This document shows positions 25,736 to 39,785 of a stretch of 64,000 bases of DNA, piece after piece. The DNA is from Planctomycetota bacterium (GTDB lineage: Bacteria; Planctomycetota; Brocadiia; SM23-32; JAKLEA01). The stretch is taken from contig JAKLEA010000010.1 in the NCBI GenBank assembly GCA_022711755.1, positions 128,899-192,898 on the forward strand, in the 5' to 3' direction. The translations under genes were made by a program, and so were the position numbers. Numbering within the stretch: the first letter of the stretch is position 1; each line of letters begins with the position of its first letter. Below the pieces are notes generated by a model. That model was not told the origin of the DNA, searched no databases, and was given only the letters and a program-made list of their open reading frames with translations.

Positions 25736-27262
25736 TTATTCGAGTTCCCTGATCCGTATGTTCTTGAACCACACGTCGTTGCCGTGATCCTGGAAACCGA
25801 TGTGGCCCTCGCGCTTCATGTCTTTGTAGGCGATTGGGAACTTGTTGTCCGTGCCGTCGGGATTCTTATGGGCCTCTTTCCAGTCGTCCAGATTCATGTC
25901 AATGATCTGCTCGCCGTTCAGTTCCACCTTGACGCTGGGGCCTTTGCAGGTCAGGACGCAGTGGTTCCACTCATCTGTCGGCTTGCAGGCGTTCTTGCTG
26001 GGGGCGAGGCAGTCGTAGATCGCGCCGCAGTCGTGCTTTTCAACCTTTTCCTTGCCGTAGGAGTCGAAGACCTGGATTTCGATGCCGGTGCTGACGGGGT
26101 CGCCCGTTCTGTCCGTGCGGAAGAAGATGCCGCTGTTGCCGCCCTTGGAAATCTTGAAGTCGAGTTCCAGGACGAAGTCGCCGAAGCGGTCCTTCGTCCA
26201 GATGTATCCGCCGCCCTTGCGGGCCAGGACGCCGTCTTGGATGATCCACTGACCCTTCTTGCAGTCCCAGCGGCCGAGTTCGCGGCCCTTCAGGAGATAT
26301 CGCCAGCCTTCCTTGTCCGCCTCGGCGGTTTGCGCGCTGGGCGCGTCGTCAACCGCCAGGTCGCCCATGGCGTACTGGATGCCGTCCAGGTAATGCTGGA
26401 GGATCGCCGGATTCCAGAATATCTCCTCCATATGACCCAGGGAGCAGTAAAAGACGCGGCCCTTGCCGTAGCGGCGGACCCATGTGACGGCGAAGTCGCC
26501 GTCCTTGCGCTTGATGCCGTCCTTGGACATGTTGGTCTTGTTGACGTCCAGGCTGAGCAGGACGCGCAGGTTCTTGCGCGAATAGGGATCGCGGAACTGG
26601 TAAATCTCATCCCTGACGCTGAAGCCCGCCGCGCCGAAGGCGGCGCAGAGGGGGTGATCCGGCTCCTCGACCTTGACGCCGACCTCTTCGCTCCAGGGGT
26701 GGCCGTCAAAGTAGCCGCCCATCATCTCGCCGTATTCCGCCCAGTTGTAGAAGCAGTCGGTGGCGGCGTGGATGCCGATGAGTCCCTTGCCGCCGGAGAC
26801 GAAGTCCAGCAGGGCTTTGCGAAGGCGGTCGCTCCTCTCGCGGGCTTTGGCCTGCTCCGCCTGGGGGAGCTTGTCGTAGTCGGGCGGCATGAACAGGTCG
26901 AGCGTGGTGTTGTTCATGCAGACGGCGTCGAACTGGGCGAGGCTCTCTGGCTCGAACATGGCGATGTCTTCGCTGGTCACGGTCTCAAACGCGCCGGTCT
27001 TCTGGCCCATGAGTTCGAGGGCTTTGGCGCCGCATTCGATTGAGCTGTGCCTGAAGCCGCGGCACAGGCCGAAGACGAGAATCTTGCGGGGCTTGGCGGG
27101 CTTGGCGCGGGCCTTTTCGGGCAGGTATTTCTTGATGAGTTCCAGTTCGCGTTCGGTCGGCGGCGCGGCGAAGAGAGGGCCGGCGCAGGCGGCGGCGAAC
27201 ATGACAACGGCCAGGGCTTGAGCGAGTCGTGATTGCATCTGTAAGTCTCCTTGATGATTCAA
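25736..27262 (-). CDS. secreted ThuA-like (type 1 glutamine amidotransferase-fold) + DUF1080 (3-keto-disaccharide hydrolase-like) fusion protein
   Basis: Signal peptide, then ThuA-like N-terminal half (KILVFGLCRGFRHSSIE...GLIGIHAATD). The C-terminal half is DUF1080 (GWRYLLKG...DFVLELDFKISKGGNSGIFFR...GHIGFQDHGNDVWFKNIRIRE). Confidence 0.75.
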   Translation of the reverse strand: MNHQGDLQMQSRLAQALAVVMFAAACAGPLFAAPPTERELELIKKYLPEKARAKPAKPRKILVFGLCRGFRHSSIECGAKALELMGQKTGAFETVTSEDIAMFEPESLAQFDAVCMNNTTLDLFMPPDYDKLPQAEQAKARERSDRLRKALLDFVSGGKGLIGIHAATDCFYNWAEYGEMMGGYFDGHPWSEEVGVKVEEPDHPLCAAFGAAGFSVRDEIYQFRDPYSRKNLRVLLSLDVNKTNMSKDGIKRKDGDFAVTWVRRYGKGRVFYCSLGHMEEIFWNPAILQHYLDGIQYAMGDLAVDDAPSAQTAEADKEGWRYLLKGRELGRWDCKKGQWIIQDGVLARKGGGYIWTKDRFGDFVLELDFKISKGGNSGIFFRTDRTGDPVSTGIEIQVFDSYGKEKVEKHDCGAIYDCLAPSKNACKPTDEWNHCVLTCKGPSVKVELNGEQIIDMNLDDWKEAHKNPDGTDNKFPIAYKDMKREGHIGFQDHGNDVWFKNIRIRELE

Positions 27263-27323
27263 TTACGCCATGCGTCGCCGCGCGTAGCACCGCGCGCGCG
27301 CCGCGCGCGTGTTGTTATCGGAG

Positions 27324-28052
27324 CTACTTCCGGGGAATTTCGCGGATGAAGACGTTCCTGAAGTAGAGGGTGTTTCCGTGGTTCTGGAGTTCGATCTGGC
27401 CCGTCGGGTAAATCGGCTTGTCCCTCTCCCAGTAGTTTTCCATCGTGACGTTGTCAACGACCAGTTCGCCGTTGAGGTAGACGGTGACCTTCTCGCCGAC
27501 CATGATGATGCGGAAGGTGTTCCATTCGCCGATGGGTTTGTCGGCGCATTTGGAGGGCTTGCTGGGATTCTTCTGGTTGTTGTACAGCCCTGCGGAGCCT
27601 TCGGGGTGATCGGCGGGGTCCCATATCTGAACCTGGGGGCTGCCGCGCAGGTAGATGCCGCTGTCGCCGTGCTCCTTTATCTTCCAGTCAACGAAAAGCT
27701 CAAAATCGCCGTAGTCCTTTGCCGTGCAAAGACTGTCTCCGCCACCATCGAAGACCAGGACGCCGTCTTCAACCTTCCAGTGAGCGCGCATTTTTTCGTC
27801 GGCCTTCGCCTGCGCTTTGGCCATCTGCTGCTCGTTCAGCTTCGCCCTGGTCGGTGGGCTTTCCACCAGGCCCTTCCAGCCTTCAAGGTCCTTGCCGTTG
27901 AAGAGGGCGACAAAGCCCTCCGGGGGGCAGTTGAGCCTGCTGTCGCAGGCTTTAGCCGACGCGCAGCGCTTCTCCTCCGCCCTCGCGACGCCGATCACGA
28001 CCGCCAGCGCCGCGATTGCGGCGACGGCAAACATTCCGCGCTTATTACTCAT
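27324..28052 (-). CDS. DUF1080 domain protein (3-keto-disaccharide hydrolase family), secreted
   Basis: Signal peptide, then FNGKDLEGWKG...DFELFVDWKIKEHGDSGIYLRG...GQIELQNHGNTLYFRNVFIREI. A conserved DUF1080 C-terminal motif is present. Confidence 0.85.
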   Translation of the reverse strand: MSNKRGMFAVAAIAALAVVIGVARAEEKRCASAKACDSRLNCPPEGFVALFNGKDLEGWKGLVESPPTRAKLNEQQMAKAQAKADEKMRAHWKVEDGVLVFDGGGDSLCTAKDYGDFELFVDWKIKEHGDSGIYLRGSPQVQIWDPADHPEGSAGLYNNQKNPSKPSKCADKPIGEWNTFRIIMVGEKVTVYLNGELVVDNVTMENYWERDKPIYPTGQIELQNHGNTLYFRNVFIREIPRK

Positions 28053-29029
28053 GGTTTGCTCCGATCCTCTTCAAGAAAAGCCGGGCCGGAAGCGCCGAAG
28101 CGCATGATGGTCCGCCCGTCGTTTTCGGAAAGCATTATCATAGCGGAGACGCCGGGGTGTTGTCGAGAATATCGTTCGATCTCCAGCGGTGACATGAGCA
28201 TGAAGGCAGTCGAAAGACAATCACTCAGCGCGCCGGAGGGAGCGGCGCACCACGCGCCGAGTTTCTCCGTCGCCGGGCGTCCCGTGCGCGGGTCAACTAT
28301 GTGATGCCCCTGCAGGAGGATGCCGGAGCCGCTCAGGGAGGCGTCGCTCAGGCTGATATGGCCGAGGCTGCCGGAGTCGTTCTGCGGGTCGCGCAAGGTC
28401 AGCGGCCAGCCCTTCCGCCCCGGAGGGTTGCCGATGGCAAGCGCGCTGCTCTGCCCGCCGTGCAGGACGGCGTTCGGGATTGACCAGTCGCGCAGAAGCT
28501 CCGCCATGCGGTCGAGCGCGTAACCCTTGCCGACGGCGCCGAGGTCAATGAGGACTCCCGACTTTCGGACGCCGACCGAGTGGCCGGAGGCGTCAATCTC
28601 GAGGAGGCTCATGCCGGTCAGCGCCAGCGCGCGGGCAAGGTCGCCCTCGTCCGGTTTGCCGTCATGGGCGGCGCGAAGGCATTTCAAGATTGCGCCGACG
28701 GTCACGTCGAATGCCCCGTTCGTGTCCGCGTTGACCTGCGCCGCCAGCTTGAGACATTCCATCGCGGCGAGGCCGACGCGGATTCTCTGCCCCGGGGCGA
28801 GGGAGTTTATCCGGGAAACGTCGCTGGAGGGCAGGAAGCGGCTGAGTTCCTCCTCAAGGCGGTCAAGCTCCTCGAAACACGCCCGCGCCGCGTCATAGGC
28901 GTACGCCGGGTTCTCCTCGATCATGAAGATTTCGAAGATGGAACCCATCGCGCGATGGCTGAATCGCCGGAGGGGAACGCCTGGGTCTGCCGGGGAGCCG
29001 ATTCTAGCGCCAATTTCGCGGTCGCTCAT
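28049..29029 (-). CDS. apbE: FAD:protein FMN transferase (ApbE family)
   Basis: AMGSIFEIF...DRLEEELSRF..SDVSRIN and GAxxKGYALD (DLGAVGKGYALD) are present. These motifs are diagnostic of ApbE flavin transferases. Confidence 0.85.
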   Translation of the reverse strand: MSDREIGARIGSPADPGVPLRRFSHRAMGSIFEIFMIEENPAYAYDAARACFEELDRLEEELSRFLPSSDVSRINSLAPGQRIRVGLAAMECLKLAAQVNADTNGAFDVTVGAILKCLRAAHDGKPDEGDLARALALTGMSLLEIDASGHSVGVRKSGVLIDLGAVGKGYALDRMAELLRDWSIPNAVLHGGQSSALAIGNPPGRKGWPLTLRDPQNDSGSLGHISLSDASLSGSGILLQGHHIVDPRTGRPATEKLGAWCAAPSGALSDCLSTAFMLMSPLEIERYSRQHPGVSAMIMLSENDGRTIMRFGASGPAFLEEDRSKP

Positions 29030-30600
29030 TTCGCATTGCCCGCCGCAGGGGGAGGGGACGCCGACCGGCGCTCGATGAGCGCGTCCCAGAGATCGGTCCG
29101 GATGTAACAGAGGATGAAAAGCTCCGGCCTTAGGCCGAAGTACTCCTCGTGATATTCCTTCTCAAGAACGGGAAGCAACTGCTCGCGGTATTCCGGCGCA
29201 AGCAGGATTATCGCGGCGCGAGAGTCGGCGGGCGGGTTTGTCCAGAAGCCGACGTTGTCGAATTTGCGCAGGTACCACGGAAGCGGCCAGTAATCCGGCG
29301 CAATCACCTTCACGGTCAGGTTGTGCCGCTCCGGGCTGACGGAGGCGACCTCCTCGACGCGCTCGTAAAGGTGCTCGACGTCATGGACTGGGTGGCCGTA
29401 GACGTAGGGATTGCGCCTGTCCGTATGGAAGCGGAAGTTGAGCAGATAAGTCTGAGCCAGAAGATTTGCGATCCCCGCGGCCATGAGTATGCGGATGATG
29501 TCCTTTCGCGGGACGGTTCGCTGGGCTCTGACCAGGGAGACGGCGCCGACGCCGCCAAGCAGAACCATGCCCTGAAGGGGGCCGAGGGCGCACCAGGGGG
29601 TTTTATACGGAATGGCCGAGTACGCGGCGAGCAAGAGGATGGTGTAGAAGGCCAGGAAGCGGCAGAGCGGGGCCTCGTCGCCGTTGAGGATTCGCGGCGA
29701 GAAGGCGTAGTAAGCGCCCGTGAGCGCCATTACCAGGATGAACGCCTCAGACCATAGATAGCGGTCGCCGTGGCGATTATAGAGCAGAAGCTTGAGGTAG
29801 AAGTTCCAGGGGTGGACGTGGGCGTCGCGCGCGCCGGCATGATGGAAGTAACGGAAGTAGGTGAGGACGGAATCGAGCGGCCCGCGCGGATTGCTGAGCA
29901 GGGAGGAGAAGAGGACGGCGGAAACGCCGGCGCCGAGGAGGACAGCGGCGACGACGTAGCGGCGGTCCGGGCGAAACTTCTCCGCCGTGACGCCGCCGAA
30001 TCTGCGGTTCCAGAGATGCGTCAGGAACAGCGCTCCGGCCATCGCGGCGAAGGCGACGACGCAGGTCTCCTTCGTGGCGTGCATGAGGCCCGCGCCGAGG
30101 CCGGCCAGGAGCAGCCACCCGTCGTCGCGGCTGCGGTAGTATCGCCAGCATCCGCCGATGACCAGGAGCGTGAAGAAGATGAGCAGCGTCTCGTGGATGT
30201 AATACCGGCTGTAGAAGACCATCGCCGGGGAGACGGCTGCCAGCATCGCGGCGTAAAGGACGATCCATCGCCCCAGCTCCTTCGCAAAGAGGAACAGGAA
30301 CGGGATCATGAGCGCGCCGAGGACGGCGGGGAGCGAGCGGAACACGGTTTCGCCGGTCTGCGCGAAGCTGCCGGCCCCGCTCAGCCACATCGGGATGAAG
30401 CTCAGATAGTAGAGGCTGGGTCCGTGATATTCGTCGGGGTCGTAACGATACTCGTTAAGGTCGTACAGATAGCGGAACTTGATAGTGTTGACGGCTTCAT
30501 CGCCATGCATGGGCCGCGCGTCGAGGGCGATAATCCTCAGCGCGACGGCCCCGGCCAGCGCGGCCGCCATCAGGACGCGGAACGTCCAGCGTCTAGTCAT
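29026..30600 (-). CDS. polytopic membrane protein, GT-C fold / glycosyltransferase family 39 (ArnT/PMT)-like
   Basis: 524 aa with more than 10 TM helices and an N-terminal periplasmic-loop DE motif (PMHGDEAVN) typical of ArnT/PMT GT-C enzymes. The start overlaps the upstream stop by 4 nt. Confidence 0.55.
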   Translation of the reverse strand: MTRRWTFRVLMAAALAGAVALRIIALDARPMHGDEAVNTIKFRYLYDLNEYRYDPDEYHGPSLYYLSFIPMWLSGAGSFAQTGETVFRSLPAVLGALMIPFLFLFAKELGRWIVLYAAMLAAVSPAMVFYSRYYIHETLLIFFTLLVIGGCWRYYRSRDDGWLLLAGLGAGLMHATKETCVVAFAAMAGALFLTHLWNRRFGGVTAEKFRPDRRYVVAAVLLGAGVSAVLFSSLLSNPRGPLDSVLTYFRYFHHAGARDAHVHPWNFYLKLLLYNRHGDRYLWSEAFILVMALTGAYYAFSPRILNGDEAPLCRFLAFYTILLLAAYSAIPYKTPWCALGPLQGMVLLGGVGAVSLVRAQRTVPRKDIIRILMAAGIANLLAQTYLLNFRFHTDRRNPYVYGHPVHDVEHLYERVEEVASVSPERHNLTVKVIAPDYWPLPWYLRKFDNVGFWTNPPADSRAAIILLAPEYREQLLPVLEKEYHEEYFGLRPELFILCYIRTDLWDALIERRSASPPPAAGNAK

Positions 30601-31304
30601 TTTGCAGGCTTGCCGTAGACTTCAACCTCTGTGTAGTGGTTCATGTCGTCGGCGGTGCTGCCTTTGCTGTAAAGGCGGATGTAACGGGCCTTGACGCCCT
30701 TGGCGTCAATGTATTTGCCCTCGTAGGTCTCGAAGTAATGCTTGTCCTTGCCGATGCCCAGGCCGGTGGAGTTGTCGTTGTCGTTGTTGAACAGGGTCTG
30801 GACGTTGGTGATGAAGTCCGGATCATCCGCTGTCTGGATGACGACGCCCTTGTAGATGCGGGGGTCGCGGTGATAGTGCCAGACCATGACGGCGTAGAGT
30901 TCGCTCTGGGCGCCGAGGTCAATCTGGACGTGCTGGAGGCCGGGTCCGAGTTCGACGTAGCCGTCCTCCGTGGCCTCCTTGTATCCGTCGGTGACGTTCT
31001 TGAGGTCGCCGACGATCGGCTCCTCGTCGCTGCCTGTGATCTCCTTGTCCTTGGCGAGGTTGTCGCAGCCCTTCGGCACCTTGATGGCCGGGCGGGGGCC
31101 TTTGCGGGCCGGTTCAAGGTTCAGTCCGGGAGGGACGTTCTTTGGCGTTCCGGCGAAGACGGGCTTGGGCAGTTCCAGTTGAAGGTCAACCAGGTCGGCG
31201 TTCGCCGCGGTTGACGCGCACTTTGCCTCCTCCGCGCGGGCGATTGTCGCGCCCAGCAGCGCGGCGGTCACGATCAGGATCGGCAGGTATGTTCGGTTTT
31301 TCAT
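30597..31304 (-). CDS. secreted F5/8 type C (discoidin)-like carbohydrate-binding domain protein
   Basis: Start MKNRTYLPILIVTAALLGA is preceded by AAGGAG. The C-terminus VQIDLGAQSELYAV...ARYIRLY is discoidin-like. The longer ORF up to 31949 is a spurious extension that overlaps the cytochrome b gene. Confidence 0.55.
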   Translation of the reverse strand: MKNRTYLPILIVTAALLGATIARAEEAKCASTAANADLVDLQLELPKPVFAGTPKNVPPGLNLEPARKGPRPAIKVPKGCDNLAKDKEITGSDEEPIVGDLKNVTDGYKEATEDGYVELGPGLQHVQIDLGAQSELYAVMVWHYHRDPRIYKGVVIQTADDPDFITNVQTLFNNDNDNSTGLGIGKDKHYFETYEGKYIDAKGVKARYIRLYSKGSTADDMNHYTEVEVYGKPAK

Positions 31305-31996
31305 GATGATGTCTCCTTGTCTTTCCCGCTCTTTTCCCACAACGGGTGATGGGCCTTGGCCCACTTTTCGCTTACGCGGCCCGTAATGATTGCCTGAATT
31401 GTTCCGGGATTGGCCAGCGTGCCCAGGTAGGCGTGAGCGAGCGCCCACGCGACCAGGAAGAGCGCGCTGAGCCGGTGAACCCACAGCAGAACGCATTGCC
31501 CCGTCGGGTCCAGCGCCGGCCAGAGCCTGCCCAGGCCGGACAGGATGACCGCGAACCCGGCAGTCGCGACGATCCAGAAATATGCCTTCTGCCCGGCGTT
31601 GAAACGCCCGGCGGGCAGGTGGTCGCGCTTCCAGATGTACCCGCCCATCTGGATCATCCAGCGCAGGTCGTAGGGCTTGAATCCGGCGTCGGCGGACCAT
31701 CCGGCCACAATCAGCGCGGCGCCGATCGCGAAGGCCGGGGCGGCATAGTAGTGGTAAAGCATCAGTTTGCCCGTCAGCGACGGCCATCCGGACAGAACGG
31801 CGTAGAAACCCGTGGCTCCCAGCGTCAGGAAGGACAGCAGCGTCAGCGCATGAGCCAGTCGCTCCAGGACGCTGAACCTGCGAATTTCCGGCTTGCCGCC
31901 GCCGGCGTCCTTGTGAGGCGGACCGAAAACCAGCAGGTGCAGGACGCACGCTCCCGCTGTTCCTATTATCGCAGCTATGGCGAGGACGCGAAACAC
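31301..31996 (-). CDS. membrane cytochrome b subunit (Ni/Fe-hydrogenase / formate dehydrogenase gamma-type, b561-like)
   Basis: Four TM helices with conserved His residues (HALTLLSF, HYYAAPAF, HRLSALFLVAWALAHAY). The start codon abuts the stop of the multiheme cytochrome gene. Confidence 0.7.
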   Translation of the reverse strand: MFRVLAIAAIIGTAGACVLHLLVFGPPHKDAGGGKPEIRRFSVLERLAHALTLLSFLTLGATGFYAVLSGWPSLTGKLMLYHYYAAPAFAIGAALIVAGWSADAGFKPYDLRWMIQMGGYIWKRDHLPAGRFNAGQKAYFWIVATAGFAVILSGLGRLWPALDPTGQCVLLWVHRLSALFLVAWALAHAYLGTLANPGTIQAIITGRVSEKWAKAHHPLWEKSGKDKETSS

Positions 31997-33856
31997 CTAT
32001 TCCTTCTCCGATTCGTCGGCGCAGAACGGGCAGGTCTCAAAGCCCTTCAACGCGCCGGCGATTGCCAGGCAGAGGTTATGCAGAACCGTGATTCCCATGA
32101 CCGCCAGGGAACCGAGCATCACGGCGGTGAAGACCGGGCGCAGCTTCAGGGCGGGCGCCCAGCAGTTCATCAATTCCCCGTCCACTCCCTGGAACGCGGA
32201 CATGGCAGTCGAGGCGGGCTTGTCAGCCGCGGGGGAGGCGTCGGCGGTTACGGTTCCGTGGAAGAACGCGGAGTTCTTTTCGTGGCAGTCCGCGCACCCG
32301 CCCGCGCCGAGGGACTGCTGCGCCGGGCGAACGTCGTGCGCCATGGCCCATGCGTAAGGCTTCGCCTCGCCGCCCGCCTTGCCGCCGGCGGAGTAGACGC
32401 ACCCGCCGGAAACGTAGACCGCCGTTCCTTCCCCGGCGGTCTCGGCTAGCGCTTCGAGCACCTTGTCCACGGTCTCTTTGGCAAGCCCGGCGGCTTTCTT
32501 CTCCCCGCCCTCTTCAGAGGCGGCGACCTTGAGAATTGAGCCGGCCGCTTTGGCTACCTTTGCGGGCGGGATGGGTTGTATCCCGCTTCCGGTCATGACG
32601 CCCCAGAAGGCGGGCCACATCATGCGGTGCGGCGCAATCTTCCCGTCCGCGTTCCGGATGAAGACGGGCTGAACTATGCGCGGGGGATCGTCGTTGCCGC
32701 GGTGCAGGCTGGACGGACCGAGGTTGTGCGCCATGGCCGTCTGGACGGGGATGGTCTGGGCTTCCGGCTTCGGGCCGGAGTGGCAGGCCGTGCAACTCAG
32801 CTTGTCCAGGTGGAGTCCGGGCAGACCTGCGTGGCGGGGTCGGGGGGCGCCGAAACGCCCCTGATTCGCGTCGCCGAGGTGACAGCCGCGGCAGGTCAGG
32901 CTCGCGCGCTCAAGATCGGCGCTTTCGCCTTCATAGCCGCGCACTATGTTGTGGCTGATGCCGTTGGCGTGGCAGTCGGAGCAGCCCATGCCGGAGGCCA
33001 GATGGACGTCGCCGTCCGTCTTCCAATCGTCCACGGGTTCCACATCGGCCCGCCTGACGGTGTGGCAGAAGTAGCAGCGGCGCGGATCGGGCTTCTTCTG
33101 AACGTTGAAGAGAACGCGCCCGTCGGAATCGAAGCGGCTCTGGTCATAGACAATTTCCGGGACGAGGTCTTCCGACCCCGGCTCCGGCATTTCCGGATCG
33201 AAATCGTCCGGGAGCCTCATCGCGGAGCCGCGCACGACGCCAAGTCCGGATACGGCAACGTGCGCCCACTTATAGTTCTGTTGCTTGATGAGGCTGCCCC
33301 ATTGCGTCTGATCGTGTTCCGGGGTCGCGTTATGGCACGTCAGACAGTCAATGGTCAGCTTGCCGCTGACGCCCCACCGGGCGTTTGGATCCTTGTCCCC
33401 GTCGGCAAGTTTCTCCCCGGGACCGCCGCCGGGCATGTGATGGCCAAACTTCTGCACGAATTCCCACGGGCTTAACCCGGCGTCGCCCGGACGGAAGGTC
33501 CCCTCCCATTTGCGGTAGGAGAGGGGGATCTGCGTTCTGGCGGCCTTATCCGTCAGAATCCAGGGTTCGCCGGGCCTGCCGGGTGGCGCTTCGGGGTCAA
33601 CGGCGTTGTAGTGCCGCCCGTTGCCCACGGCGTCGTAGTCGTGGCACTTGCCGCACGTGCCTACGGGGGAGTATGGTCCGGTTTCAGACGGCTCTTTGGG
33701 ATCAATGGTTTCCCGGCTTTCGTCGTAGAGGGAGACGCGGTGCGTGAATCGCGCGCGGCTGCCCGTACGCGGGGTTTCCGCTGCGCGGAGTCCCGCCGCA
33801 AGACCGGCTGCCGCGCTGATCAAGCACGGTAGAAGGAAAAGGCGCTTATTGCGCAT
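31997..33856 (-). CDS. membrane-anchored heptaheme c-type cytochrome
   Basis: Signal peptide, then seven CxxCH motifs (CGKCH, CLTCH, CYFCH, CSDCH, CRGCH, CTACH, CADCH). A single C-terminal TM helix (VFTAVMLGSLAVMGITVLHNLCLAIAGAL) is also present. Confidence 0.8.
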   Translation of the reverse strand: MRNKRLFLLPCLISAAAGLAAGLRAAETPRTGSRARFTHRVSLYDESRETIDPKEPSETGPYSPVGTCGKCHDYDAVGNGRHYNAVDPEAPPGRPGEPWILTDKAARTQIPLSYRKWEGTFRPGDAGLSPWEFVQKFGHHMPGGGPGEKLADGDKDPNARWGVSGKLTIDCLTCHNATPEHDQTQWGSLIKQQNYKWAHVAVSGLGVVRGSAMRLPDDFDPEMPEPGSEDLVPEIVYDQSRFDSDGRVLFNVQKKPDPRRCYFCHTVRRADVEPVDDWKTDGDVHLASGMGCSDCHANGISHNIVRGYEGESADLERASLTCRGCHLGDANQGRFGAPRPRHAGLPGLHLDKLSCTACHSGPKPEAQTIPVQTAMAHNLGPSSLHRGNDDPPRIVQPVFIRNADGKIAPHRMMWPAFWGVMTGSGIQPIPPAKVAKAAGSILKVAASEEGGEKKAAGLAKETVDKVLEALAETAGEGTAVYVSGGCVYSAGGKAGGEAKPYAWAMAHDVRPAQQSLGAGGCADCHEKNSAFFHGTVTADASPAADKPASTAMSAFQGVDGELMNCWAPALKLRPVFTAVMLGSLAVMGITVLHNLCLAIAGALKGFETCPFCADESEKE

Positions 33857-33862
33857 CGTTTA

Positions 33863-35233
33863 TCAGACCTTGAACTGCTCGGGGTTGAACTCGACCATGC
33901 CCTTCTTGGCGATTGAGTCGTTGGCGGCCAGAACGGTGACGGCCGTTTCATAGCCGACCTCGCCCGGGCAGGAAAGGGGAGTGCCGTTGCGGATTGCGTT
34001 GAAGAAGTTCTCCAAGTGGACCTGATGGGGCGGCTTGCTCAGATTGGCGACCATCTGCTCCACCACGGCATCCTTCTTGCCGCCGGCCTTGAGTGTCTCG
34101 CCGACCTTCAACGAGATCTCCGACCGTCCCATCTTATCCAACTCGGCGCTATCGTCTTCCCATTCGCGCTTCTTGGCGCGAGGCTCTTTGATGATCTTGC
34201 CGATCGTATCATCCTCAGAAATTTGCATGGTGCCTTCATCGCCAAGGAATGTTTCATATAGATTGCCGAAGCTGGACGTATTCAGGACTTGGTAGTAAGC
34301 CCTGACGGGGCCGGCTTCGGTGGCGTATTCGTAGATCGTCAGGACGTTATCGTACCACTCGCGGCCCTTGTAATAGTCCAGCCCGCCGCTGGCAATGACA
34401 GTCTTCGGCGGCGTCATAAGGAACCAGTTATAGATGTCAATCTGATGGGAGCCGAGGTCGGCGATCAGACCGCCGGAATATTGGCGGAACCAACGCCAGT
34501 TACGGAAACGCTGCATGGTGTCGTAACCGTACTTCTTAAGGGATGCTTCATCCATATCAGCGCCCTTTGCCCAGCCAATCTCGTCGCTTTGGCTGGTGCC
34601 GCGGTTCCATTGCCCGTTGCAGTGCGTGATGCGGCCCAGAATCTTGTCCTTCGTGATCATCTTCAGCGCATGGTGATAGCGCGGGTTGCTGCGGCGCTGG
34701 TGGCCGATCTGGAGGAGCTTCTTGGTTTCGCGGGAGGCGAGGACCATCTCCTTCGCTTTCGCCAGGTCGTTGGACATCTCTTTTTCGCAGTAGACGTGCA
34801 GTCCGGCCTTCATGCAGGCGATGGAGTGTTCGGCGTGGACCCAGTCCGGGCTGGCGACTATGACGGCGTCCAGGTCCTTCTCCGTGGCCAGCATGTCCTG
34901 ATAGTCCGCATAAGGCTTCGCCTCATGGTCAAACTTTTTCAGTATCTTTACCTGGCGGTTGAGGTTGAAAGCCCAAATGTCGCAGACTGCGACAAAACGG
35001 ATGCCCTCGATTTTCAGGGCGTTGTTCACCAGGTTGTTCCCCTGACTACCAGCGCCGATGATGGCGACCTTGAGATCGTCCGGCTTCGGGGTCGTCTTCG
35101 GGGTTTCCTGGGGCTTTTCCTCCTTGGCGGCCTCCTGGCCCATCACGGACGAGGAGAGGACGGCGCCTGCGCCAACCGTGGCAACGGACCGCACGAAATC
35201 GCGTCTTGAGAGCGTGAATTTGATTTCTTCCAT
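33863..35233 (-). CDS. Tat-exported periplasmic Gfo/Idh/MocA family oxidoreductase (glycoside 3-dehydrogenase-like)
   Basis: Twin-arginine signal SRRDFVRSVATVGAGA, then Rossmann motif KVAIIGAGSQG and a Gfo/Idh/MocA C-terminal domain. It lies 6 nt upstream of the heptaheme cytochrome gene. The ORF from 35284 gives a 17-aa longer N-terminus. Confidence 0.8.
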   Translation of the reverse strand: MEEIKFTLSRRDFVRSVATVGAGAVLSSSVMGQEAAKEEKPQETPKTTPKPDDLKVAIIGAGSQGNNLVNNALKIEGIRFVAVCDIWAFNLNRQVKILKKFDHEAKPYADYQDMLATEKDLDAVIVASPDWVHAEHSIACMKAGLHVYCEKEMSNDLAKAKEMVLASRETKKLLQIGHQRRSNPRYHHALKMITKDKILGRITHCNGQWNRGTSQSDEIGWAKGADMDEASLKKYGYDTMQRFRNWRWFRQYSGGLIADLGSHQIDIYNWFLMTPPKTVIASGGLDYYKGREWYDNVLTIYEYATEAGPVRAYYQVLNTSSFGNLYETFLGDEGTMQISEDDTIGKIIKEPRAKKREWEDDSAELDKMGRSEISLKVGETLKAGGKKDAVVEQMVANLSKPPHQVHLENFFNAIRNGTPLSCPGEVGYETAVTVLAANDSIAKKGMVEFNPEQFKV

Positions 35234-35342
35234 GTTGTGTATCCTTTGAATCAGAGTTGTCGGTTTATCCTGCGGACGGGTCATCCGGCGCGCCGCCGGG
35301 GTTCCGTCCCTGAATTATCAAGCGCGGCGTCCGGGCCGGCAT

Positions 35343-36341
35343 TTATTGATCCTTGAGTTCCACGACCCAGATGTTGCGGTAGCGCACCGGATTTCCGTGG
35401 TCCTGCAGGCGCAGCGGGGCGGTCGGCACGGCATCGGCCCCGGCGGCTCCGCCGGTGGGGCCGGGCACGACGAGGTTGTCATGAATGACCTCGCCGTTAT
35501 GCTCTACCGTGACCGTGACGGGCTTGACGACCTTGCCGGCGGCGTCAAAGCGCGCGGCGCGGAAGGTCATGTCGTAGGTCTGCCAGGAGAGCGGCGGGCA
35601 GCAGGCATTGACGCGCGGCTTGGCGATCTTATAGATGCCGCCGCAGTCGTTGTCCGCCGATCTCAGTCCGTATGAATCGAGAACCTGCACCTCGTAGCGA
35701 TCCTGAAGGTAGACGCCGCTGTTGGAGCGGCCCTGGCCGAGGCTGATGGGGTCGTAGCAGCAGCGGAATTCAAGGTGGAGTTTCATGTCCCCGAACGAGC
35801 GGACGGTCTTGTTGTCTCCCTTGAAGACCTCGACGCTGCCGTCCGGCATGGGCTTCCAGTTCTTGTTGATCCACTCGTCGAGGGGGGGATTTTCGCAGGG
35901 GTACTTCAGCAGGACGATCGCGCCTTCCGGGGGCTTGGCGCCCAGCGTGGGGGACTTGCGGATCGTGTATTCCGCCGCGTACTTGTCGCCCTTCTCGGAT
36001 TCCGCGGCGGCCTTGCCGTTGCCGACGGTTCCTGTCCACTTCACGCCCGCGCCTGAATCGTCAATCTTTATCACGCCGTCCTTGAGCATGCCCCTGAGGA
36101 GCAGGCGGGAAATCTTGCCCTTGTGGCCGGGTATGTCGGTCTGGAATACGACGCGATAACGCTCCTTTCCGTCCGGAACGACGTAGACGACGGCCTTCTG
36201 CTCCTCGCCGGCGGCGGGTTTGAAGGTTCCGATGTAGTCTCCCATGAGCTTGTCCGGCAGTTCCTCCAGCGTCACCTGCTGGGCGGACGCCCGGACGACG
36301 AGGACCGAGAGCAGACAGACAAGCAGGGCTGTTCGGCGCAT
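35343..36341 (-). CDS. secreted DUF1080 domain protein (3-keto-disaccharide hydrolase family)
   Basis: Signal peptide, and a C-terminal DUF1080 signature (DMKLHLEFRCC...GVYLQDRYEVQVLDS...LRLQDHGNPVRYRNIWVVEL). Confidence 0.8.
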   Translation of the reverse strand: MRRTALLVCLLSVLVVRASAQQVTLEELPDKLMGDYIGTFKPAAGEEQKAVVYVVPDGKERYRVVFQTDIPGHKGKISRLLLRGMLKDGVIKIDDSGAGVKWTGTVGNGKAAAESEKGDKYAAEYTIRKSPTLGAKPPEGAIVLLKYPCENPPLDEWINKNWKPMPDGSVEVFKGDNKTVRSFGDMKLHLEFRCCYDPISLGQGRSNSGVYLQDRYEVQVLDSYGLRSADNDCGGIYKIAKPRVNACCPPLSWQTYDMTFRAARFDAAGKVVKPVTVTVEHNGEVIHDNLVVPGPTGGAAGADAVPTAPLRLQDHGNPVRYRNIWVVELKDQ

Positions 36342-36496
36342 CTGATCTCTCCGTTGGCGGCGTCCTGCGGCTCATTTGCCGGCCCCCAGCCGCCTCGGGG
36401 ACCGCTTTGAAGGACAAGGGATCATGCGGGAGCGGGTTTGAAACCCATCCCCGCACAATTCAGGTTAACATTGAAGGGAACCAAAGTAAAGAAACA

Positions 36497-36524
36497 GGGC
36501 CGCAGAGTCAAGTCCCTGCGGCCC
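36497..36524. terminator. bidirectional intrinsic terminator-like hairpin
   Basis: gggccgcag-N10-ctgcggccc with T-runs on both strands (tgtttctttactttgg on minus, attttcgccattttt on plus). It sits just downstream of the 36612 stop. Confidence 0.5.
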
Positions 36525-36611
36525 CGGATTTTCGCCATTTTTGCGGATCGCGTCGCCTTCCGCCCGCTCAGGCTCTTTCAGTCTGGAAGCCCTTGCGCGG
36601 GCTTGCCGGAC

Positions 36612-39600
36612 CTATTTCAGCCCTCCCTGGCAATCGCACTTGATGTCGGGAAGCGGGCCGCCGTCGGCGGCTCGGACGCGCGCGCAGGCGGACCAGTTGT
36701 CCTTGTAGTCAACAACCTTGAGCAACAGGTCGTTCCATCCTTCCTTAAGACTGATTTTCACTTTATCTTCCCAAGCTGTGGTCGGGCGCACTGCCTTGTT
36801 GGAATGGACTTCGACGCCGTTGAGCCAGACCTTGATGCCGTCATCGCTGCCGACTTCAAGCTGCGCATCCTGCTCCTTCGGGGAATGGATGCGCGTGCGG
36901 AGATACGCGGCGCGATCGTCCCCTCCAATGGATGCGTCAAGGTTGATCAGCCAGGGCTTGTTGCCTTCTCCGACGTCCTGGTCATTCCATTCGACGCCCT
37001 TCGCATCGGCCTGTTCCGGCGGGAACGCGACGTCGAATATCTCCTGCCCGGTCTTGCCTTCCTGCATGTAAGGCCCGGACACCTGCCAGCAGTCCAGGAA
37101 GGTATCCGGCGAGAAGGAGAGTAGTTCCGTCGCGCCCTGGGACTCGATCTTCAGTCCTTCGACCTTGCCGCCGTCAACGCCGCGAATTCTGGCGCAGGCG
37201 CTCCAGTCCCCGCCGCCGTCCGTGATTTTCATCAGCAGGCAGTTCCAACCCTCGTTGAGGGCGACCTTAACCTTGTCCTCGCCGGGATTCATGCCGCGGG
37301 AGGCGTTGTTCGCGTGGACGACCGCCCCGTTGAGCCAGACCTTGATGCCGTCGTCGCTGCCCATCTCAAGATTGACCTCCTGAGCCTTCGGGGAGTAGAC
37401 CTTGGTCAGGAGGTACGCGCAGCGCTGGTCTCCGCCGATGGTCGCGTTGAGGTCAATCATCCAGGGCCTGTTCTGGTCGGTCCCGACCTTCTGAGAGGTC
37501 CACTTTTCAGACTTGGCTTCAGAAGTCTCAGGCGGGAAGGCCATGTCGAAAAGGGCCTTGCCGTCCTTCCCCTCTTTCAAATACGGTCCGGCGACAAGCC
37601 ATGACGTGATGAAGTCCTCGTATTTCTCGATGATTTCCCGGACTTCCTGCGCCTGTTTGCGCACGGACTCCGACTTGGAGACTTCCAGAACCTTCGTTAC
37701 CGCCGCTTTCGCGGCATCCTTGTCGTCGGCGCTCACGTTTTTGGCAATCTTCACCAGCGCGAAGGCCGCCTCGGTGGAAAGGTCCTTGTCCGCCAGGTAA
37801 GGTTCGACCATTTTGAGGGCGGCGGAGTTGGAGACATCCGCGACGCCGGAGAGGACCATTCTACGTTCCTCGGGGCGCTCGGCGACCTCCATCCCTTTTG
37901 CGAAGAGAGCCAGCGTCTCAGCCGCGGAGCGCTCGCTGGGCAGGCCGACGACCCTGACGTATCCGCGCAGGGCCAGTACCTTTTTCGGGAGGTCGGGGGC
38001 GTTCTTCGCCAGTTGCAGCAGTTCCTCCGCCGGGGCGGCGTCCGGCCACTCGGACAGGACGCGCAGGGCGGTCTCGCGGGTTTCCTCGTCATCGCTCTTC
38101 AGGGCTGCGCGGACGGACTCAAGCGCCTTCGCCCCGCCCAGTCGCCCGGCCGCGCGAAGCAGCGCGCACCGGGTCTTCGGCTGGGCATTTGCCAGTTCCG
38201 CAAGGATGGGGGCGACGCGCGCGTCCTGGTCGGAAATCTGCTTGGCCGCGTTCACAAGGGACGTTTCAGCCGCTCGCTGTTCCGCGCCCTCGGACTTCAT
38301 GAAAAGAGCCAGCACGTCGCCCATGGCCTCAGGCCCGGCGACCATGCTCAGGGCGTCAAATGCGGCGATGCGGACCTTCTTATCCGCGTCCTGCGCGGAC
38401 CAGAGGAGGATGGGCGCGGCGGCGGAGCAGTTGCGGTCGGCGATCACCTGTATCAGGGCAACCTTCCGCCCGGCGTCCGCGCCGGGGATGGCTGCGACGA
38501 TAGCGGCGTCAACCATCTCGCCCTGCGCGGTCTTCAGGCAGGACAGAGCGGTGTTCCGCTCCGCGCTTTCCTCGGACCCGAGCGCCTTCACCATGATCGG
38601 AACGCCCGACGCGCCGGCCAGCGGGACGAGCGCCTGAAGGGCGGCGTTGCGCACCATGAGGCTCTTGCTCTTCGTGGCTTCGATGACGGCGGGCGTCGCG
38701 GAGGTGTCCTTGCGCTCGGAAAGCGCGCCCAGCAGGGCGGCCTGCGCGGCGGGGCTGAGCTTCGGAAGCTGATCGGCGAATGCCTTTGTCGCCTGCTGGC
38801 CCGGCATGTCAACGACGTACCTGGCCGCCGTTGGGAACAGGTTTGGATCGTCCCCGGCCAGAAGCTTTGAGATCAGGGGCACGGACATCTCGCCCCGGCA
38901 GTTGACAATGCCCTGCAGGGCGGCGATCTGGACGTGCGCAGCCTCGCAGGGGCAGAACATGTCATCATAAATCGCCGCGGCGGCAACCTTATCCCCTGCT
39001 GCCGCGAGCCTGTCCGCGCAGAGCAGATAAGAGTCAATCACGAGCGGTCGCGCCGCGCCGATGCAGGCGTCCTTGAGCTGCTTGAGCTTCGCGGCGGCCT
39101 CGGCGTTGCCGATCTTGCCCAGGGCGGCGACGGCGGCGGACGAGGCGTCAGCGTCGGCGTCGTCGGCCAGCGCGGCCAGTTGCGGGACGGATTGCGCGTC
39201 GCCGCGCTCGCCCAGGGAGTTGATGATGCCAATGCGCGTCTTGCCCTGTGCGGCGTTCAGCGCGTTGCGGAGCGCGTCGCCGGCCTCCGGGCAGGGCATG
39301 CGCTCAAGCGCGTAGCGGGCCATGTCGCCGGGACTGGCGGCGCCGGGACCGGCTTCCGGGGCGGCCAGGAGCTTTTCAAGCGCGGGGACAGCCTCCGCGT
39401 CGCCGATCTCGCGCAACTGGCGGCAGACGAAGTCCTTGCACGCCGTTGTGGCGTCTGTGCCCAGGATGGCGGCAAGGCGCTCGGAGACGGCCTTGCGCTT
39501 TGCCGGGTCAGCCGCGGTCGAGTTGCAGTAGTCCTCTATGACGCTCAGGCAGGCGCGTTCCTTGTCATAGTCGTAGGCGACCATGTCGGCGAACGCCTTC

Positions 39601-39785
39601 TCGACCGGGTCCTGCGCGGCCTGCGCCGCCGGGGGCGCGGTTTCCGGCGCGGACGCCGGCGCGGCTTCCGCCGATTCCTGGCCCTCAGGAACCTGTACCG
39701 TTTCCGTCTTGTTCACAACGACGCATGAACAAAGAAAGATACACGAGACTACTGCCGCAATCATTCTCACGCGCGACATGTTCAT
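36612..39785 (-). CDS. HEAT-repeat lipoprotein with two C-terminal PA14 domains
   Basis: Lipobox FLCSCV, a long array of HEAT/PBS-lyase-like repeats (..AVPAL..LL.D.D..VR..A..ALG..), and two C-terminal PA14-like modules (GPY..EGK...DGIKVWLNG..V). The alternative ATG at 39779 has better RBS spacing. Confidence 0.65.
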   Translation of the reverse strand: MNMSRVRMIAAVVSCIFLCSCVVVNKTETVQVPEGQESAEAAPASAPETAPPAAQAAQDPVEKAFADMVAYDYDKERACLSVIEDYCNSTAADPAKRKAVSERLAAILGTDATTACKDFVCRQLREIGDAEAVPALEKLLAAPEAGPGAASPGDMARYALERMPCPEAGDALRNALNAAQGKTRIGIINSLGERGDAQSVPQLAALADDADADASSAAVAALGKIGNAEAAAKLKQLKDACIGAARPLVIDSYLLCADRLAAAGDKVAAAAIYDDMFCPCEAAHVQIAALQGIVNCRGEMSVPLISKLLAGDDPNLFPTAARYVVDMPGQQATKAFADQLPKLSPAAQAALLGALSERKDTSATPAVIEATKSKSLMVRNAALQALVPLAGASGVPIMVKALGSEESAERNTALSCLKTAQGEMVDAAIVAAIPGADAGRKVALIQVIADRNCSAAAPILLWSAQDADKKVRIAAFDALSMVAGPEAMGDVLALFMKSEGAEQRAAETSLVNAAKQISDQDARVAPILAELANAQPKTRCALLRAAGRLGGAKALESVRAALKSDDEETRETALRVLSEWPDAAPAEELLQLAKNAPDLPKKVLALRGYVRVVGLPSERSAAETLALFAKGMEVAERPEERRMVLSGVADVSNSAALKMVEPYLADKDLSTEAAFALVKIAKNVSADDKDAAKAAVTKVLEVSKSESVRKQAQEVREIIEKYEDFITSWLVAGPYLKEGKDGKALFDMAFPPETSEAKSEKWTSQKVGTDQNRPWMIDLNATIGGDQRCAYLLTKVYSPKAQEVNLEMGSDDGIKVWLNGAVVHANNASRGMNPGEDKVKVALNEGWNCLLMKITDGGGDWSACARIRGVDGGKVEGLKIESQGATELLSFSPDTFLDCWQVSGPYMQEGKTGQEIFDVAFPPEQADAKGVEWNDQDVGEGNKPWLINLDASIGGDDRAAYLRTRIHSPKEQDAQLEVGSDDGIKVWLNGVEVHSNKAVRPTTAWEDKVKISLKEGWNDLLLKVVDYKDNWSACARVRAADGGPLPDIKCDCQGGLK

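Follow-up and report, generated by a model that had tools for sequence, protein, structure and literature searches.

A Tat-exported Gfo/Idh/MocA enzyme in a conserved gene cassette with alternative membrane modules in uncultivated bacteria

The glucose-fructose oxidoreductase (GFOR) of Zymomonas is exported by the Tat pathway with tightly bound NADP, and its cofactor is recycled by a second sugar in a redox-neutral ping-pong reaction with no dedicated membrane partner. A different type of module is known from Geobacter, where FdnI/HydC-like cytochromes b are combined with multihaem cytochromes c, as in CbcL. The BT2156-BT2160 / AL1-AL5 pathway (Liu et al. 2021, PMC8121099; Nasseri et al. 2024) shares with the locus described here a periplasmic, Tat-exported Gfo/Idh/MocA enzyme, which holds non-exchanging NAD, as well as DUF1080 proteins and, in related loci, xylose-isomerase-like TIM-barrel proteins. 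This pathway is redox-neutral, and cytochromes, DoxD, ApbE, GT-C and discoidin proteins are not functional parts of it. In the FAD-dependent glucoside 3-dehydrogenase or LacABC type (cited in PMC8121099), periplasmic glycoside oxidation is linked through a c-type cytochrome to the respiratory chain, a logic also proposed for the present locus, but the catalytic subunit is a flavoprotein and not a nicotinamide enzyme. Cytochromes have been named as a possible, untested re-oxidant of Tat-exported Gfo enzymes (Nasseri et al. 2024, bioRxiv 10.1101/2024.03.25.586180); apart from this one speculative sentence, a full-text literature search found the present arrangement nowhere described in the papers covered, in agreement with a preliminary description of the locus, which knew of no described system of this kind.

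The window, that is, the whole stretch of DNA analysed (64,000 nucleotides from a Planctomycetota bacterium, contig JAKLEA010000010.1), carries nine co-directional minus-strand genes, G1 to G9, running from 36341 to 25736; all features given below with coordinates lie on this strand. The junctions are gaps of 58 nt (G1/G2), 6 nt (G2/G3) and 0 nt (G3/G4), 4-nt overlaps (ATGA) at each of G4/G5, G5/G6, G6/G7 and G7/G8, and a gap of 61 nt (G8/G9). These reading frames and junctions, including the 6 nt between the Gfo/Idh/MocA gene and the cytochrome c gene downstream of it, match the preliminary description, and the gaps of 6 and 0 nt together with the four overlaps bear out its view of a tightly coupled single unit; its domain calls all held in profile searches (Pfam, TIGRFAM). 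Start-codon choice decides two of the junctions, the JGI calls of G3 and G7 being shorter. The long start of G7 is supported by residues R22-M27 (RFxHxAM), which are conserved in 40 orthologues, and the long start of G3 gives a normal signal peptide. No LacABC-type flavoprotein gene was found by Pfam among the nine genes.

A terminator-like hairpin (36495..36526; 13-pair stem with 10 GC pairs, T-rich tail) lies between G1 and the HEAT-repeat gene upstream and probably bounds the nine-gene unit on its 5' side. The co-directional genes beyond it (36612..45575), probably a separate transcript, encode according to Pfam the HEAT-repeat protein of 1057 aa, two PF19051-type Gfo paralogues with Tat motifs, and ResB and CcsA, which constitute System II cytochrome c maturation. 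In many other loci, GfoC2 and HEAT genes adjoin the core, and ResB/CcsA do not recur there.

G2 (33863..35284) encodes a Tat-exported Gfo/Idh/MocA sugar dehydrogenase of the NAD(P) type (PF01408 with PF02894/PF22725) and anchors the conserved cassette. Its twin-arginine signal, recognised in the preliminary description, has the motif SRRDFV, in which RR is invariant among orthologues, as are GxGxxG, E167-K168 and D276..H280; the Rossmann motif, the catalytic Lys and the D-x3-H motif are all kept. The AF2 model (pLDDT 80) has an ordinary Gfo fold, with Zymomonas GFOR among its top structural matches. Against the BT_2158 family model, G2 scored 82 bits (cut-off 750) and is not a member; the PF19051-type upstream paralogues are closer, at 136-157 bits, and still not members. 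It had been argued that a periplasmic enzyme of this kind has no obvious way to recycle its cofactor. This premise did not hold, since a redox-neutral ping-pong with a 3-keto-sugar product is documented for AL3/BT3.

Three of the nine genes encode secreted proteins of the DUF1080 (3-keto-disaccharide hydrolase) family: G1 (35343..36341; PF06439, 103 bits, residues 154-326), which has an N-terminal extension of about 150 aa and a hydrophobic segment at residues 5-23; G8 (27324..28052; PF06439, 163 bits), with a signal-like segment at residues 7-25; and G9 (25736..27262), a ThuA-DUF1080 fusion (PF06283, 151 bits; PF06439, 164 bits). A 3-keto-glycoside substrate, as proposed earlier, is only suggested for G2, by such neighbours, and the low score against the BT_2158 model does not add to it.

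G3 (31997..33856) encodes a periplasmic heptahaem cytochrome c with a signal peptide, seven CxxCH motifs and a single C-terminal TM helix. Seven haem motifs were present in 73/80 orthologues and the helix in 79/80; all seven CxxCH are invariant, together with 8 further His, a pattern that suits a wire better than a catalytic haem. At 50% identity, the family falls into 541 clusters (E ≤ 1e-30), and no sequence relationship to characterised multihaem proteins was detectable. In contrast to the LacABC type, the cytochrome here carries seven haems, is tethered to the membrane and is paired with a cytochrome b. The latter, G4 (31301..31996; PF01292, Ni_hydr_CYTB), is FdnI-like (formate dehydrogenase gamma type): it passes TIGR01583 (119.1 bits, cut-off 115.85), and it aligns to chain C of 1kqf, the two helix-IV His included. 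As in FdnGHI (PDB 1kqf), a periplasmic dehydrogenase would feed a menaquinone-reducing cytochrome b, but the cluster in the window is without FdnG or FdnH and has the heptahaem cytochrome c in place of the iron-sulfur subunit. Moreover, the helix-I haem ligand is Tyr, not His, in 30/42 orthologues; hence a two-haem FdnI-type redox loop is not assured. Geobacter CbcL-type modules are alike in joining such a cytochrome b to a multihaem cytochrome c, and fused G3+G4 versions exist; here, however, the pair is coupled to a sugar dehydrogenase and the proposed direction is towards quinone.

G5 (30597..31304) encodes a secreted discoidin / F5_F8_type_C-like protein, left unnamed in the preliminary description, whose identity is weak in the window (weak Pfam hits) and clear in orthologues (PF00754). 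In nearly all loci its gene lies directly upstream of that for the GT-C-fold membrane protein, here G6 (29026..30600; PMT/PMT_2), a member of the TIGR03663 / Agl23 family (193 bits, cut-off 126) with conserved DE and HGP motifs. G7 (28049..29029; PF02424, 168 bits) is an ApbE-family flavin transferase that retains the motifs DLG..GKGYA.D, HI.DPrtG and D.lSTAf. It has no signal peptide, a hydrophobic N-terminus is absent from all 40 orthologues, and the protein is predicted to be cytoplasmic. An ApbE gene within an extracytoplasmic redox cluster is also a feature of ApbE-dependent extracytosolic electron transfer (Meheust et al. 2021, PMC8238504), but there ApbE differs from the signal-less protein found here, and the present cluster is without FMN-binding, DUF2271 or DUF3570 domains or the [S/T]GA[S/T] motif. 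Cytosolic ApbEs are known only for soluble fumarate reductase (PMC12052999). The target motif D..[ST]GA[ST] was absent from every core protein and every recurring neighbour. The co-encoded flavin transferase named in the preliminary description does recur, but as a predicted cytoplasmic protein with no canonical flavinylation target in the cluster.

Members of the cytochrome c family were found in at least 558 species-level genomes from several phyla, and the top hits are all MAGs. A survey anchored on it covered 80 loci from Planctomycetota, Sumerlaeia, Omnitrophota, KSB1, Calditrichaceae, Kiritimatiellota, Verrucomicrobiota and Bacteroidota. In one phylum after another the genes stand in the order Gfo-cytochrome c-cytochrome b, with protein identities of about 40-50%, which is more than chance; the arrangement is real, widespread and undescribed. 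Cytochrome b lies directly downstream of cytochrome c in 66/75 loci, or about 70/75 with fusions, the two being fused in 3 further loci (L020, L046 and L064). With a strict filter, a G2-type Tat-Gfo gene was found within 500 nt upstream of cytochrome c in 47/69 loci, which inspection raises to about 51-57/69; the two genes are commonly 0-20 nt apart or overlap (median spacing 45 nt), and this holds in many phyla. The survey thus upheld the link of a Tat-Gfo enzyme to a membrane-anchored heptahaem cytochrome c and a cytochrome b, and the ApbE, GT-C, DUF1080 and ThuA partners also recur beside Gfo and cytochromes in other loci.

When the search was anchored on G2 instead (63 testable metagenome loci), the next gene was cytochrome c in 24 and the discoidin gene in 24, and neither module adjoined G2 in 15/63. 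In 28 loci the start of G2 is overlapped by the gene for a DoxD/DoxX-like 4-TM protein, which none of the 80 cytochrome-anchored loci has. Two membrane modules, the cytochrome c/b pair and this quinone-type protein just upstream of G2, almost exclude each other (contingency table 16/0/2/17, Fisher p = 4e-8). JGI names the latter 'thiosulfate dehydrogenase [quinone] large subunit', and 2/5 copies pass the Pfam DoxX threshold. Found outside this window, it resembles the DoxDA / DoxX thiosulfate:quinone oxidoreductase but comes without DoxA and with a Gfo protein as putative donor. The nearest neighbour of each G2 sequence had the same architecture in 98/98 cases, which fits co-evolution with the membrane partner. 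ApbE accompanies G2 in both architectures, sometimes lying between G2 and the cytochrome in L008 and L063 and right after cytochrome b in L030 and L031; DUF1080, ThuA, AP_endonuc_2 TIM-barrel and MFS families flank both alike. The invariant cassette is G2, the discoidin protein, the GT-C protein and the cytoplasmic ApbE, and not the cytochrome chain, which the preliminary description had placed at the core. The observations of that description are confirmed and its interpretation is partly borne out: the conserved coupling stands, whereas the cofactor premise fails, the cytochrome chain is not the core and the 3-keto substrate is no more than suggested.

The gene neighbourhood leads us to favour, at about even odds, a net-oxidative respiratory form of the periplasmic keto-glycoside pathway in which G2 would oxidise a sugar and pass the electrons to a membrane module. 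G2, a putative sugar (secondary-alcohol) dehydrogenase, would fold around NAD(P) in the cytoplasm before Tat export, and its cofactor would be re-oxidised in the periplasm not solely by a keto-sugar co-substrate. In the window, the tethered heptahaem cytochrome would act as a bis-His electron wire to the FdnI-like cytochrome b, which would reduce (mena)quinone; in other lineages, the DoxD/DoxX-like protein would substitute for the pair. This swap speaks for a transfer of electrons from G2 into the quinone pool and gives the flow to quinone proposed earlier an independent footing, though we infer its direction, the acceptor and the substrate class. DUF1080, ThuA-DUF1080 and the extra Tat-Gfo paralogues would supply or process keto-sugar intermediates, and the discoidin-like periplasmic protein, the Agl23-like GT-C protein and ApbE would be obligatory accessories of G2. 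NAD(P)H can donate only hydride, and haems take up electrons one at a time; no case of a Gfo/Idh/MocA enzyme that reduces a cytochrome is known to us. The preliminary description did not mention this two-electron/one-electron mismatch. The simplest conjecture for ApbE is that it attaches FMN to a Tat substrate ahead of export, and that this FMN would serve as the two-electron/one-electron converter between NAD(P)H and haem.

The constant Agl23-like lipid-sugar protein is left unexplained by a catabolic model. It could instead bring polyprenyl-phosphate hexose to the periplasmic face, where G2 would oxidise the lipid-linked sugar or a derived glycan as a step in the epimerisation or modification of an envelope glycoconjugate, with electrons dumped in the quinone pool via the cytochromes or the DoxD-like protein; DprE1 in mycobacteria would be an analogue. 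GT-C and discoidin (a sugar-binding type) are indeed G2's most constant partners, above the cytochromes, G6 belongs to TIGR03663, Agl23 has been reported as a candidate hexose-P-dolichol flippase, and GT2 glycosyltransferase genes lie in or beside the cassette at L002 and L121. However, catabolic-type flanks dominate (DUF1080, ThuA, xylose-isomerase-like TIM barrels, some with Tat signals, MFS, GH123), with up to five tandem Tat-Gfo paralogues, and no recurring polysaccharide export or polymerase genes were found in the surveyed loci, so we regard such a biosynthetic role as unlikely. A redox-neutral keto-glycoside pathway as in Bacteroides/Alistipes, with cytochrome c/b as an unrelated respiratory module sharing regulation or a genomic island, would fit the characterised AL3/BT3, which recycle NAD by reducing 3-ketoglucose without a protein acceptor, and BT2157, a DUF1080 protein that is a 3-keto-disaccharide hydrolase. 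Loci in which no Gfo gene lies upstream of the cytochrome (about 12/69), like the G2 loci adjoined by neither module, count against the respiratory reading. The close spacing of G2 and cytochrome c in many phyla, the mutual exclusion of the two modules at the same enzyme, the G2 subfamilies that follow their membrane partner and the position of G2 outside the BT_2158 family make the redox-neutral explanation decidedly improbable.

Electrons might also run in reverse, from quinol through cytochrome b and the heptahaem cytochrome to G2, which would reduce a periplasmic keto-sugar or other carbonyl as the electron sink of a fermenting anaerobe. The host lineages are mostly anaerobic, the host itself looks anaerobic from a glycyl-radical enzyme encoded in the window (a trait that also counts against the respiratory reading), catalysis by Gfo enzymes can run both ways, and quinol oxidation is the role of multihaem/cytochrome b modules such as Geobacter CbcL; nevertheless, by general potentials, transfer from menaquinol (about -74 mV) through NAD(P) (about -320 mV) lies far uphill, and DoxD, where characterised, is a quinone reductase, which leaves this direction with little probability. 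That the heptahaem protein itself catalyses the reduction or oxidation of a small inorganic molecule, with G2 incidental, is hardly credible: its weak local similarity to NrfB/NrfA-type haem motifs covers only some 50 residues around two haem motifs, every one of the seven motifs is CxxCH, the invariant His suffice for bis-His ligation of every haem, and solved enzymes gave no fold match.

The new point is an invariant cassette of G2, discoidin, GT-C and ApbE with a swappable membrane module. Under the favoured respiratory reading, the layout of exported dehydrogenase, heptahaem cytochrome c and cytochrome b, present in hundreds of uncultivated bacteria, may represent an unrecognised route from extracytoplasmic sugar oxidation into respiration.

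On the minus strand between positions 36341 and 25736, ORF calling in the window gave nine consecutive ORFs, numbered G1 to G9 from the upstream end, with junctions of 58, 6, 0, −4, −4, −4, −4 and 61 nt in that order; each of the four overlaps is an ATGA. These ORFs and spacings agree with those of the preliminary description. JGI calls shorter versions of G3 (cytochrome c) and G7 (ApbE), and two of the junctions hinge on the choice of start codon. The long start gives G3 a normal signal peptide and, in G7, is needed to cover residues kept in 40 orthologues. G1 to G9 are probably one unit, because a strong terminator-like hairpin (36526-36495, minus strand; 13 pairs, 10 GC, with a T-rich tail) separates the upstream HEAT-repeat gene from G1. 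A scan for sigma-70 promoters was uninformative, with 2 sites found against 2.2 expected. At the downstream end, an MFS transporter gene (24124-25368, plus strand) is convergent with the unit, and a gene assigned by Pfam to GH123 also lies at this flank.

Upstream of G1 are two further Tat-exported Gfo paralogues, both PF19051-type, and a HEAT-repeat protein of 1057 aa (36612-42555, minus strand). The pairing of a PF19051-type Tat-Gfo with a HEAT_2-repeat protein of ~1050-1130 aa is repeated at 55518-60247 (minus strand), where the second copy has an N-terminal ThuA domain. Such GfoC2-HEAT pairs recur beside the core genes in many other loci, and the HEAT repeats are weakly similar to NblB/CpcE bilin-lyase repeats. 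The ResB and CcsA genes of System II cytochrome c maturation (42552-45575, minus strand) are located upstream of the two Tat-Gfo genes and co-directional with them. They were considered as a part of the system and rejected, since their adjacency to the core had no match in the other 80 loci and is confined to this genome, and since the terminator-like hairpin lies between the units. The adjacency is probably a local coincidence, yet it provides what G3 requires. Two ORFs, one of 808 aa (45668-48094) directly upstream of ResB and one of 411 aa (48388-49623), both on the minus strand, had no family match; the former gave a sub-threshold F5/8 type C match only. A glycyl-radical enzyme of the pyruvate formate-lyase type (50278-52653, plus strand) points to an anaerobic host. 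A DnaA gene (13464-14948, minus strand) suggests that the replication origin may be close to the window; the cumulative GC skew turns at two places, around 12-18 kb and around 42-46 kb.

The exported dehydrogenase, G2, carries a Rossmann domain (PF01408, 67.7 bits) with invariant GxGxxG glycines (G77, G79 and G82) and an invariant catalytic E167-K168-E169, reading EKE and not EKP, together with D276...H280 (D-x3-H). Its Tat signal, LSRRDFVRSVATVGAGAV, contains the twin-arginine motif SRRDFV followed by a hydrophobic stretch, and scores 17.1 against TIGR01409 (cut-off 16.7). Orthologues are 42-61% identical across phyla and keep the RR pair, GxGxxG, E-K and D-x3-H without exception. The AF2 model (pLDDT 80) has the two-domain Gfo fold, and its top Foldseek matches (E ~1e-23 to ~1e-22) are scyllo-inositol dehydrogenase, GFOR, RgNanOx, WlbA, glucuronide-3-dehydrogenase and levoglucosan dehydrogenase. 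C3-oxidising and other enzymes score equally among these neighbours of the predicted structure and, as the top matches all lie at ~1e-22, the modelled fold does not settle the substrate or regiochemistry of G2. Against the BT_2158 family model (NF058561), G2 reaches 82 bits where the cut-off is 750, with only the N-terminal half covered; judged by this profile, G2 is not a member of that family.

The last point bears on the oxidation of glycosides to 3-keto-glycosides, which the preliminary description had proposed. G1 and G8 are secreted DUF1080 proteins and G9 is a secreted ThuA-DUF1080 fusion; functions are predicted from domain matches to PF06439 (103, 163 and 164 bits for G1, G8 and G9, respectively) and, in G9, to ThuA PF06283 (151 bits). 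Hydrolysis of 3-keto-disaccharides has been demonstrated for BT2157, a DUF1080 protein. It is the DUF1080 and ThuA neighbours, and not G2 itself, that suggest the 3-keto-glycoside reading. None of the nine genes encodes a domain of the FAD-dependent glucoside 3-dehydrogenases (LacABC/G3DH), that is, the flavoprotein catalytic or the small Tat subunit.

G3 is a protein of 619 aa with a signal peptide, seven CxxCH motifs and a single C-terminal transmembrane helix. Its assignment as a multihaem c-type cytochrome follows from the seven invariant motifs, the signal-like N-terminus and the presence of the ResB and CcsA maturation genes in the window. In an alignment of 32 members, the seven CxxCH and eight further histidines were invariant, which would be enough for bis-His ligation at every haem. 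Seven haem motifs are found in 73 of 80 family members and the C-terminal helix in 79 of 80. More than 2000 homologues were detected at E<=1e-5 in a large protein collection, the top ones being ~40-50% identical over the full length and all named hypothetical; an exhaustive profile search at E<=1e-30 placed the family at 541 clusters at 50% identity, with many members of 750-870 aa. The G3 model (pLDDT 72), compared by fold with the PDB, had no match at E<=0.001, and a profile search of PDB sequences matched only NrfA, over 50 residues around two haem motifs; hence, no structural relative can be named.

The adjoining G4 is a four-helix cytochrome b that scores 119.1 against 115.85 bits with TIGR01583 (formate dehydrogenase gamma) and aligns with FdnI of 1kqf. 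Candidate haem ligands in the window protein are H49, H82, H174 and H188. At position 49, where the helix-I ligand is expected from FdnI, 30 of 42 orthologues have Tyr and 8 have His, as the window protein does; in many members of the family, there may thus be a single b haem or a His/Tyr pair of ligands. The molybdopterin and 4Fe-4S subunits that partner FdnI (FdnG/FdnH) are absent among the neighbours of G4. In three loci (L020, L046 and L064), the cytochromes c and b are fused in a single polypeptide of ~810-830 aa, and L048 probably carries the same fusion. These fusions argue that G3 and G4 act as a single unit.

The surroundings of the cytochrome were compared by scanning one genome per species, which gave at least 558 genomes with the G3 family; the best 80 of these are all MAGs and come from Planctomycetota (Phycisphaerae, Pirellulales, Sedimentisphaerales), Sumerlaeia, Omnitrophota, KSB1, Calditrichaceae, Kiritimatiellota, Verrucomicrobiota and Bacteroidota. 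ORFs were classified by HMMs made from the window proteins and their first matches. Cytochrome b lies directly 3' of cytochrome c in 66 of 75 testable loci and is fused to its C-terminus in three more. A G2-type Tat-Gfo gene was found within 500 nt upstream of cytochrome c in 47 of 69 testable loci under a strict filter, a count that is too low because the overlap filter dropped over-extended ORFs. The figure is 51/69 after inspection and Pfam searches, and 57/69 when loci are admitted in which an ApbE gene intervenes, an AAA-ATPase gene is inserted or the gap is longer; some 12 cytochrome c loci have no Gfo gene upstream. One such AAA-ATPase gene between G2 and cytochrome c (L040:1618-3168) has the look of a mobile insertion. 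The trio of discoidin protein, GT-C protein and ApbE occurs near cytochrome c in about half of the loci, a count that contig extent limits. The arrangement noted in the preliminary description is real, non-random and widespread.

A different picture emerged when metagenomes were scanned with an alignment of G2, which gave 80 loci, 63 of them with enough downstream sequence. The gene next to G2 was cytochrome c in 24, the discoidin gene in 24 and neither in 15. The discoidin-next loci continue with GT-C and ApbE and have no cytochromes. In cytochrome-less loci, a four-helix membrane protein of 150-190 aa runs into the start of G2. At E<=1e-5 this protein has 1469 homologues; the Pfam DoxX model was passed by two of five copies, and in JGI annotation the family is called 'thiosulfate dehydrogenase [quinone] large subunit', which is DoxD. 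Of the G2-anchored loci, 28 carry the DoxD-like gene, whereas the 80 cytochrome-anchored loci gave no example of it. Among loci testable on both sides, those with the gene upstream were followed by discoidin in 16 cases and by cytochrome c in none, whereas those lacking it were followed by discoidin in 2 and by cytochrome c in 17 (Fisher p = 4e-8). The short contig L084 seems to combine a DoxD-like gene with the first part of a cytochrome c gene. The G2 proteins of the two architectures form separate subfamilies; in each of 98 cases, the nearest neighbour came from a locus of like architecture. On long contigs of the DoxD type, the cassette is surrounded by the same accessory families, namely an AP_endonuc_2 TIM barrel, another Gfo, two DUF1080 proteins, ThuA and an MFS transporter. 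A single in-frame ORF of 634 aa in L127 (754-2658) joins the DoxD-like protein to G2, with the Tat motif internal, and may be a real fusion or reflect a stop codon lost in assembly. A DDE transposase gene just upstream of a DoxD-like gene (L114:4162-5292) is another mobile-looking insertion.

Hence, one exported dehydrogenase is alternately coupled to two unrelated membrane modules. Since the same set recurs with either module, the conserved cassette is G2, the discoidin protein, GT-C and ApbE, and it plugs into one of the two. The interpretation given in the preliminary description is partly borne out: a dedicated electron-transfer module physically linked to G2 has strong support from comparative genomics, and the DoxD alternative sharpens it.

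The two remaining partners raise another possibility. G5 is a secreted protein of 235 aa in which F5/8 type C matches are sub-threshold in the window and clear in orthologues, and the GT-C membrane protein G6 scores 193 against 126 bits with TIGR03663 (Agl23 family). It conserves HGDEAV and EYHGP, that is, the DE and HGP motifs of the TIGR03663/Agl23 family. Archaeal Agl23 is a candidate hexose-P-dolichol flippase. GT2 glycosyltransferase genes were observed by or within the GT-C/ApbE part in L002 (17400-18122, minus strand) and L121 (10039-10740), and polyprenyl-phosphate sugar synthesis for the Agl23-like protein would fit them. The Agl23-like and discoidin proteins are constant partners of G2, as would suit a biosynthetic role in which G2 oxidises a lipid-linked sugar or glycan during modification of envelope glycoconjugates; we regard this role as quite improbable. 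Two unrelated membrane modules on one enzyme are what is expected if G2 delivers electrons to the quinone pool: the first is a haem wire that would end in an FdnI-like cytochrome b with a quinone site, and the second is a DoxD-type protein, known from a quinone reductase. General redox potentials would make the oxidation of a secondary sugar alcohol downhill when menaquinone accepts the electrons, but not the reaction in the opposite direction.

NAD(P)H gives hydride whereas haems take single electrons, and a flavin or quinone intermediary is therefore expected, for which ApbE is the obvious supplier of flavin. G7 is an ApbE domain protein (PF02424, 168 bits) with conserved DLG..GKGYA.D, HI.DPrtG and D.lSTA motifs. 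A hydrophobic N-terminus or signal peptide is absent from the window protein and from 40 orthologues, unlike the classical extracytosolic ApbE, and G7 is on this ground predicted to be cytoplasmic. Cytosolic ApbEs are known only for soluble fumarate reductase (PMC12052999). ApbE is placed between G2 and cytochrome c in L008 and L063; in L030 and L031 it comes right after cytochrome b, and the GT-C and discoidin genes are missing there. ApbE therefore seems to be linked to the redox core and not to the GT-C protein. The flavinylation motif [S/T]GA[S/T] was absent from the core and from all 15 cluster proteins, and no recurring motif-bearing ORF was found among all ORFs of ~160 loci. S-N-G-N-T, a conserved stretch in the discoidin protein, was rejected as a degenerate site; its central residue is Asn, not Ala, and it adjoins a Y-x-E-V-E-V-Y-G C-terminal strand of the kind usual in F5/8 type C domains. 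Another candidate, the HATKET sequence of the GT-C protein, was set aside, its topology being uncertain. Our guess is that ApbE would act on G2, because it is the Tat cargo alone, G2 with its paralogues, whose folding takes place in the cytoplasm, before export; the flavinylation site would then be a non-canonical one.

The substrate, the direction of electron flow and the role of ApbE we infer. In the scheme so obtained, NAD(P) would cross the Tat system as a fixed prosthetic group, and cytoplasmic ApbE would already have added covalent FMN. From NAD(P)/FMN, single electrons would pass to the heptahaem cytochrome c and cytochrome b or to the DoxD-like protein, with the Agl23-like GT-C protein and the lectin-like subunit required for assembly at the membrane. 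That these features together define a new class of periplasmic sugar:quinone oxidoreductase is a tentative proposal, to which we give a low probability. The system would share the periplasmic dehydrogenase-cytochrome-quinone logic of FdnGHI and of the FAD-type glucoside 3-dehydrogenase, but is a member of neither family.

Full-text literature searches found no description of this cluster, and the searched passages of an ApbE-cluster survey (Meheust et al., PMC8238504) mention neither Gfo/Idh/MocA enzymes, multihaem terms nor Planctomycetes. What comes nearest in print is a single sentence by Nasseri et al. (bioRxiv 10.1101/2024.03.25.586180), who name cytochromes as a possible re-oxidant of Tat-Gfo enzymes; these authors state re-oxidation of the buried nicotinamide cofactor in vivo as an open point. 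In the Alistipes and Bacteroides enzymes, the cofactor is normally recycled by reduction of 3-ketoglucose (Nasseri et al.), which corrects the earlier premise that a periplasmic Gfo enzyme has no recycling route.

Exported Gfo/Idh/MocA proteins are among the most expanded families of Planctomycetota, Verrucomicrobiota and Bacteroidota and have recently been shown to drive non-hydrolytic glycan breakdown. The cluster offers a concrete, testable system of four to six proteins. A dedicated membrane acceptor, here in two interchangeable forms, would turn extracytoplasmic sugar oxidation into energy-conserving respiration, would assign a function to a cytochrome family of 541 clusters, all of them annotated as hypothetical, and would add cytoplasmic flavinylation of Tat cargo to the known roles of ApbE. 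If true, the sugar:quinone oxidoreductase would be the missing route by which exported Gfo/Idh/MocA enzymes are re-oxidised in vivo, and for uncultivated polysaccharide degraders it would be a major energy-conserving step.
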